Shown here: one piece after another, positions 6,543 to 7,610 of the stretch
Layout: every line of letters starts with the position of its first letter
How positions within the stretch are numbered: position 1 is the stretch's first letter
Translations under genes and position numbers: made by a program
The notes under the pieces: model-generated
Told to the model about the DNA's origin: nothing
What the model saw: the letters and a program-made list of their open reading frames with translations, nothing else
The model's database searches: none
DNA from: Sphyrna mokarran
Taxonomy: Eukaryota
Length of the DNA stretch: 64,000 nucleotides
Reading direction: 5' to 3'
Assembly (NCBI GenBank): GCA_024679065.1
Contig: JAGIQG010000011.1
Span: 73,594,001-73,658,000, forward strand

Positions 6543-7610
6543 GGAGTAGCACCATGGCACAATGGTTAGCTCTGCTGTCTCACAGCTCCAGGGATCCGGG
6601 TTCAGTTCACCCTTGGGTGACTGTCTGTGTGGAGTTTGCATGTTCTCCCTGTGTCTGTGTAGGTTTCTTCAGTGAGCTCTGGTTTCCTCCCACAAATGTG
6701 GAGATGCTGGCATTTGACTCGGGTAAACACAGTTAAAAAATCTCACAACACTAGATTAACAAGTCCAACAGATTTATTTGATAGCAAACACCACTAGCTT
6801 TCCGAGTGCTGTTATTGCAAGTTGATGACATCTTGCTATTCCAGTTACAAGTCAGCTTTAATATTCAAGCAATAAAAGAAATGTAACAAGGGCTTATTAT
6901 TGTTAAAGAAATTTGACAAGCTGCCTCTGCTTTCTTTACAATAGCGCATAATTTCACAAAGAATGGGTTCCCAAACAATGGGTTTTATTCACTTTGTTAA
7001 GTGAGTTCATGCTGTTGTCTAGGAGATCTGAAGTTGCAATTAATTTGGGGTAGAAAATGATTGGGAGTGGGGAAGAGGAGCACAAGGTCCAATTGAGGAA
7101 GTATTTGCAACACATTCAAGGCAAGGTGCAGAAACAGCATTTTGGCTGTCTGAAAAAACAAGTTAGGTTCCTTAATGCTTGGTGTCTGTTTTCAGACACA
7201 ATTCAGGTATTTGTTTGGCTGGAGCACAGCAGACATTGGGCCTGTTTATAGAACATAGAACATTACAGTGCAGAACAGGCCCTTCGGCCCTCGATGTTGC
7301 GCTGACCAATTGAGAAAAAGCAATGACCCTTTATGGTCACGATTATGTGGTTTCCATGAGGTCTGAAGGAGCAGCTAGTGGTTCGTGCTACCAAATAAAC
7401 CTGTTGGACTTTGACCTCCTGTTGTGAGATTTCTTACTGTGTTCCTCACACAATCCATAGATGTGTGGGTTAGGTGAAAGGACCATGCTAAATTGCCCCT
7501 TAGTGTCTCAAAATATGTCAGCTAAATGGGATTAGCCGTTACAGGGATAGGGTGGGAGAGAGACCTAGGTAACTTGCTCCATCAGAGAGTTGATGCAAGT
7601 TCAATGGGTA
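6543..7610 (+). mobile_element. HE1 SINE split by a Penelope fold-back insertion
   Basis: Head at 6543-6695, remainder from 7442; target duplication ttcctcccaca / ttcctcacaca. Confidence 0.9.
6696..7442. mobile_element. Penelope-derived fold-back element carrying captured local DNA
   Basis: Inverted arms 6696-6811 and 7364-7442 enclose a copy of 5294-5794, which itself contains a small CR1 3' tail insert (7250-7330). Confidence 0.9.

Follow-up and report, generated by a model that had tools for sequence, protein, structure and literature searches.

A copy of nearby unique DNA between the inverted pLTR arms of a Penelope-like insertion in Sphyrna mokarran

Results

Overview of the locus

Analysis of a 64-kb stretch of Sphyrna mokarran DNA (the window, to which all positions without a contig prefix refer) identified an inverted-pLTR insertion of a Penelope-like element (PLE) that carries between its arms a copy of unique DNA located 0.9–1.4 kb upstream of the target site and apparently of the same age as the insertion, which bears out the central proposal of a first-pass annotation made from the sequence alone. 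The locus itself is an old, dead insertion in which non-coding DNA was duplicated locally, as a one-off; nothing points to a function, and we saw no sign that the unit formed by the arms and the filler had moved later. As a structure, it belongs to the by-products that recur with Penelope insertion, and is a long and well-traced case. We think it rather likely that such a structure arises when two cDNA ends, primed from opposite nicks, are joined via a DNA-templated patch.

Structure of the insertion

The insertion (6696–7441) splits a member of an abundant SINE-like family, which we take to be HE1. The 5’ part of this SINE (6534–6695, plus strand, start approximate) and its 3’ part (7442–7610, plus strand, end approximate) rejoin as one element when aligned to five other copies, and the annotated order of left pLTR arm, filler and inverted pLTR arm within the split SINE holds together with its coordinates. 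The insertion is flanked by a 12-bp target site duplication (TSD) with one mismatch, TTCCTCCCACAA at 6684–6695 and TTCCTCACACAA at 7442–7453 (both plus strand), the score of which was matched by none of 60 mismatched control pairs.

The left pLTR arm (6696–6811, minus strand) carries a tail of about 30 nt, and its inner end lies in stem II or loop II of the hammerhead motif, in agreement with the annotated stop in stem II; the right arm (7364–7441, plus strand) has no tail and starts within the CUGAUGA core. The arms are identical at 61 of 71 positions and represent head-to-head ends of one repeat. In the right arm 11 nt are deleted between two AGC repeats, so that the 3’ strand of stem II and the GAAA are gone; this deletion form occurs once in 1.86 Mb. 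A complete CUGANGA core with stem II and GAAA-UH on one strand is absent at the locus and neither arm fits the core pattern: both ribozymes are destroyed. Non-LTR retrozymes are described as tandem units with complete hammerheads (10.64898/2026.07.22.740005), and this class was rejected for the locus, where two inverted, broken motifs are found.

Origin and age of the filler

The filler (6812–7363, plus strand) had been annotated as a same-orientation, diverged copy of 5294–5794 (the donor, plus strand), and the alignment supports this with 86% identity over 460 columns. Local alignment gave 385 identical columns out of 446 ungapped ones, and end-to-end alignment, with an inner repeat fragment set aside, gave 63 mismatches in 460 columns; the local score of the donor was 447, versus at most 123 in eight random controls. 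The two sequences are colinear, with gaps of only 1–13 nt and no poly(A). The donor is unique and apparently non-coding, and sits in a repeat-free stretch (about 4950–6500). Searches of the whole genome (2.77 Gb) with the donor and with the filler found two places each, the two copies themselves, and no closer one; such a search skips very common words, and absence of a match is not proof of rarity. With a nearby source and two places genome-wide, the filler is in this respect like a locally templated insertion, and an origin from a dispersed repeat was rejected. The word CTGATGA, a hammerhead core word, is present in the donor 7 nt inside its left end (5301–5308), probably by chance.

Part of the filler was added later. 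The segment 7250–7334 (minus strand, about 85 bp, flanked by TTTAT at each end) is a 3’ fragment of a dispersed repeat, presumably a LINE-like tail, with 89 matches in 1.86 Mb; since the best of them are 92–94% identical, this fragment is younger than the filler. Because these 85 bp are a later insertion, the copied part amounts to about 465 bp, taken from a 500-bp donor: the capture of neighbouring DNA proposed in the annotation stands, but its length of about 550 bp does not. The annotated distance of about 1.5 kb is correct as the start-to-start spacing of donor and filler, whereas 0.9 kb separates the end of the donor from the target site.

At the right junction TGA (7364–7366) is common to the end of the filler and the arm, as annotated, and at the left junction TG is common and is followed by three extra bases; these microhomologies of 2–3 nt are eroded by the 14% divergence. 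The arm also matches the DNA just before the donor start at 12 of 16 positions. This was equalled by 71 of 3000 random 40-mers, and the match, noticed after the fact, is a weak hint.

Filler and donor differ by p = 0.137 ± 0.031 (n = 460) and the two arms by p = 0.141 ± 0.081 (n = 71), which suggests that filler and arms are of one age, the arm-arm interval being wide. Judged from these divergences, the SINE would have come first, followed by arms and filler at about one time and then by the inner repeat fragment. The equal divergence would fit capture during integration and repair a few generations later alike.

The annotation had named two observations that would speak against its reading, namely that the filler is a dispersed repeat or that it has a TSD of its own, and neither was made: around the junctions we found only two chance 5-mers in common, neither of them at the junctions. 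This also bears on the idea that the filler reached the fold-back by chance, as an independent insertion or as an ordinary duplication of local DNA. Later insertion at the centre of a fold-back does happen, as in one of 58 pairs surveyed below (65 nt, with 98% identical copies elsewhere), but here the lack of a TSD and of repeat status, an age equal to that of the arms, and a homology that breaks off at the end of each arm largely refute such a chance arrival, which we consider very improbable.

Genes and transcripts around the donor

The two longest open frames over the donor had no match in Pfam, and none of the 145 open frames searched (out of 358 in the window; those in its low-copy parts) reached the cut-off, a search that short exons would escape. 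Two weak matches below the cut-off, to Myb_DNA-bind_5 (58975–59334, minus strand, E = 0.004) and to RVT_1 (2587–2883, minus strand, E = 0.0004), are likely transposon remnants. A search of sequencing runs returned one DNA run with 0.77 of the words, which may be the source sample, and 23 others with small shares; no RNA run was among the matches.

The Penelope reverse transcriptase (RT) could have switched from its own RNA to a nascent local transcript, copied 500 nt, and then switched back or had its product joined to the other cDNA. The Penelope machinery is reported to mobilise host sequence between pLTRs, and template jumps have been proposed (PMC3846280); arm ends also cluster (see below) where the RNA is structured and may make the enzyme stall, which would agree with this course of events. 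However, no gene was recognised around the donor in the Pfam search, the filler follows the donor colinearly with short gaps and no poly(A), and the distance to the source, less than 1.5 kb, speaks for DNA in physical proximity, so that a jump onto a transcript appears distinctly improbable.

Two further sources of the filler were rejected. Internal Penelope sequence is one of them, the best match of the filler to two long copies being 13 nt. The other is 3’ transduction: no pLTR arm lies beside the donor, which adjoins the target and not a source element, and the transduction of flanking sequence mentioned in the annotation does not apply in its usual sense.

Element family and hammerhead motif

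The pLTR profile, built from real copies, also finds a long copy 200 kb away (C113:73797433-73802270), a 4.8-kb palindrome with arms 98.5% identical and a perfect 15-bp TSD. This young copy has matches to RVT_1 (1.7e-09) and GIY-YIG (4.6e-05), both above the Pfam cut-off, and one stop within the RT/GIY-YIG frame. Since the long copy has both domains, the family belongs to the endonuclease-bearing (EN+) PLEs, the evidence being that of the long copy, as the stump at 6696–7441 itself is without these domains.

The hammerhead core pattern is present in 51 of the 124 arms that span it, and stems I and II fold in the pLTR copy at 8625–8680. Rfam gave nothing at the gathering score in the 64-kb window and, in 6700–11000, only hairpin-type chance matches (E up to 10) and no hammerhead; this is expected, as minimal hammerheads in PLEs are reported to lack helix III (PMC6155905).

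Together, RT and GIY-YIG in the long copy, the one-sided tail, the TSD and the minimal hammerhead motif are the features of EN+ PLE inverted insertions. Those described (Pen2a_Av, PMC3846280; PMC8557442; PAc, PMC11167929) share with the locus the head-to-head ends and TSD, the one-sided tail of 30–40 nt, the minimal hammerhead in the pLTR, and RT with C-terminal GIY-YIG in long copies. In contrast to them, the arms here are stumps of 80–115 nt with a 550-bp non-element filler between them.

Survey of fold-backs

A survey of 1.864 Mb of one contig around the window, with arms scoring at least 20 bits, yielded 176 arms and 60 head-to-head pairs, of which 58 remained after two pairs with gaps of more than 5 kb had been dropped. 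Exactly one arm carries a tail in 57 of the 58 pairs, and 38 have a TSD of 10–18 bp, versus none of 60 mismatched controls. Six further head-to-head pairs within the window (8539–8722, 16062–16708, 19292–19525, 21730–21972, 28037–28260 and 47093–47318) have no host filler. The window also contains about 510 bp of host DNA duplicated in inverted orientation (21961–23086; halves 89% identical and about 100 bp apart); the duplication includes a pLTR copy, so that two pLTR ends face each other tail to tail.

While 28 of the 116 paired arms extend beyond the 338-nt model, the inner ends of many shorter ones fall at model positions 190–243, that is, the ribozyme and 17 nt upstream of it, or 19% of positions: 55 of 88 short paired arms (binomial p = 8e-19) and 24 of 45 solo arms (p = 4e-07) end there, arm ends being profile boundaries that are good to about 10 nt. 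Paired and solo arms do so similarly (Fisher p = 0.35), which indicates that the ribozyme zone is a general stopping place and not a mark of capture. Thus, both junctions of the locus do lie in the hammerhead, as annotated, but a special role of this location in capture is not supported, and the clustering for which the annotation proposed to test is common to arms with and without partners. Setting of the junctions by ribozyme cleavage was rejected, since the cleavage site is the end point of only two of the 116 paired arms. This scarcity agrees with the in vitro result that ribozyme mutants leave insertion unchanged (PMC11167929). Both traced fillers, that of the locus and that described in the next section, have both ends at model positions 207–243, versus three of the 56 other pairs; we left this contrast uncounted because palindromes without filler blur the boundary.

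Non-element DNA of at least 8 nt lies between the arms in 14 of the 58 pairs, and of at least 30 nt in six: the locus (6812–7363), a 152-bp case, one young repeat insertion, and three spacers of 46, 35 and 68 nt (C113:73210174-73210632, 74107324-74107506 and 74176814-74180179, respectively), for which no source was found within 10 kb. In the repeat insertion (C113:73538309-73538628), the end of a young repeat (65 nt, with an A-run) occupies the centre, accompanied by what looks like a short duplication; it was inserted later.

A second traced filler

A perfect 12-bp TSD flanks the fold-back at C113:74075223-74075579, both arms of which retain the whole core and end where arms commonly do, without loss. 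Its 152-bp filler is a repeat fragment with a same-orientation copy 0.7 kb upstream, and ACCT is common at the right junction. The local copy is 81% identical to the filler, compared with 78–83% for the 29 best of 1351 candidates, so that overall identity does not favour it and counts against this case; it has six of 12 filler-specific states, versus 0–4 in these 29 distant copies. This filler was probably copied from the local fragment, as far as shared states can indicate.

The filler of the locus could also be explained by a tight palindrome that was inserted first and later broke at its centre (as a cruciform or hairpin), lost 10–30 nt, was repaired from nearby DNA and became stabilised. 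High rates of central breakage are reported for perfect palindromes in the mouse germ line and in cells, and spacers are reported to stabilise them (PMC8701086). Tight palindromes are also the usual starting product here, 44 of the 58 pairs having no non-element run of at least 8 nt, and both arms of the locus are damaged inside the hairpin: the end of the left arm lies 10–20 nt inward of the commonest positions, and the right arm is affected by the core deletion, which a later centre break could cause and which we count against a patch between cDNA ends. The resemblance to such revised palindromes extends to the asymmetry at the inverted-repeat centre, but according to the same source (PMC8701086) the usual outcome is a small deletion and not a long local copy as here: deletions made up 93% of 118 rearrangements in the cell line, and in a set of transgenes a spacer was seldom included. 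The same apparent age of filler and arms, and the second fold-back with no loss from its arms, also argue against a later break, which is on the whole unlikely.

Discussion

Joining of two cDNA ends through a DNA-templated patch, the explanation that we favour, accounts for a filler that fits exactly between the ends of the arms, has a single further copy in the genome, lacks a TSD and has diverged from its donor to the same extent as the two arms from one another; the second fold-back, with its probably local 152-bp filler, is counted in its favour too. Against it we count, besides the arm damage, the three of six spacers of at least 30 nt without a source within 10 kb. The anole element PAc is reported to cut and extend both strands in vitro, with two start sites that bound the tail (PMC11167929), and the one-sided tails and the TSDs of the surveyed pairs fit both properties. 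From this we infer two-ended priming for PLEs; for inversions, Arkhipova et al. 2013 (PMC3846280) proposed self-priming on an antisense template.

In the sequence of events that we propose, the GIY-YIG endonuclease would cut both strands 12 bp apart, and each free 3’ end would prime its own cDNA, the outer start site giving the tailed arm and the inner one the tailless arm. The left arm (top strand) would be the cDNA that starts from the tail, and the right arm (bottom strand) the cDNA that starts about 30 nt further in. Both would stop early, in the zone of the ribozyme hairpin where most copies stop. As the two ends would have no good complementarity, one of them may pair with neighbouring DNA through 2–4 nt, perhaps aided by the 12-of-16 match; a host repair polymerase would then copy about 500 nt, after which the end would come free and anneal to that of the other cDNA. 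The small repeat fragment would have inserted into the filler later.

Similar patches are described for L1: 22 templated insertions, typically shorter than 250 bp and with sources within 15 bp of the site, were ascribed to pairing of cDNA with nearby DNA (10.1101/2024.08.27.596794). L1 templated insertions and twin priming (10.1101/2024.08.27.596794; 10.1101/2024.12.14.628481) share with our proposal the copying of nearby genomic DNA into the insertion and the joining, by microcomplementarity, of two cDNAs from opposite nicks. However, the copy described here is about 500 bp long and its source is about 1 kb away, a greater length and distance that we count against the patch; the retroelement is also of a different class.

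Host DNA between pLTRs is known from Adineta vaga, where the spacers of Pen1_Av measure 0.9–1.5 kb and an NRPS gene and non-coding DNA lie between pLTRs with a TSD (PMC3846280). Unrelated host DNA between pLTRs and a TSD around the whole are common to these captures and the locus, but the NRPS gene lies between direct pLTRs and was interpreted as having been mobilised in trans to another site (PMC3846280), and the available text of that source traces none of the spacers to the neighbourhood of the target, whereas here the source is 0.9–1.4 kb away and its copy lies at the inversion point. Thus, host capture by Penelope (PMC3846280) and templated patches in L1 (10.1101/2024.08.27.596794) are already known. 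In a literature search that left most subscription journals outside its scope, no paper turned up on a filler traced to a local source, either at a Penelope inversion point or in sharks.

How PLEs build inverted ends and finish integration is described as unresolved in the available text of two studies (PMC8557442, PMC11167929). The simplest reading of a traced filler at the inversion point is that there were two independent DNA ends in need of a bridge, and this speaks against such copies having formed as a single self-primed hairpin; the fillers are a countable genomic marker with which the model of integration can be tested. As a tentative generalization, which we hold to be plausible rather than probable, Penelope may integrate via an open two-ended intermediate in which the cDNAs stall at the ribozyme hairpin or shortly upstream of it, about 2% of the insertions being patched from DNA at most 1.5 kb away. 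If this is true, the genome would contain, very roughly, 1,500 patched fillers (from 31 pairs per Mb and one traced filler in 57 pairs, the discovery locus left out). Penelope would then steadily supply shark genomes with short duplications of local DNA, and the fillers would be a genomic read-out of the unsolved joining step.
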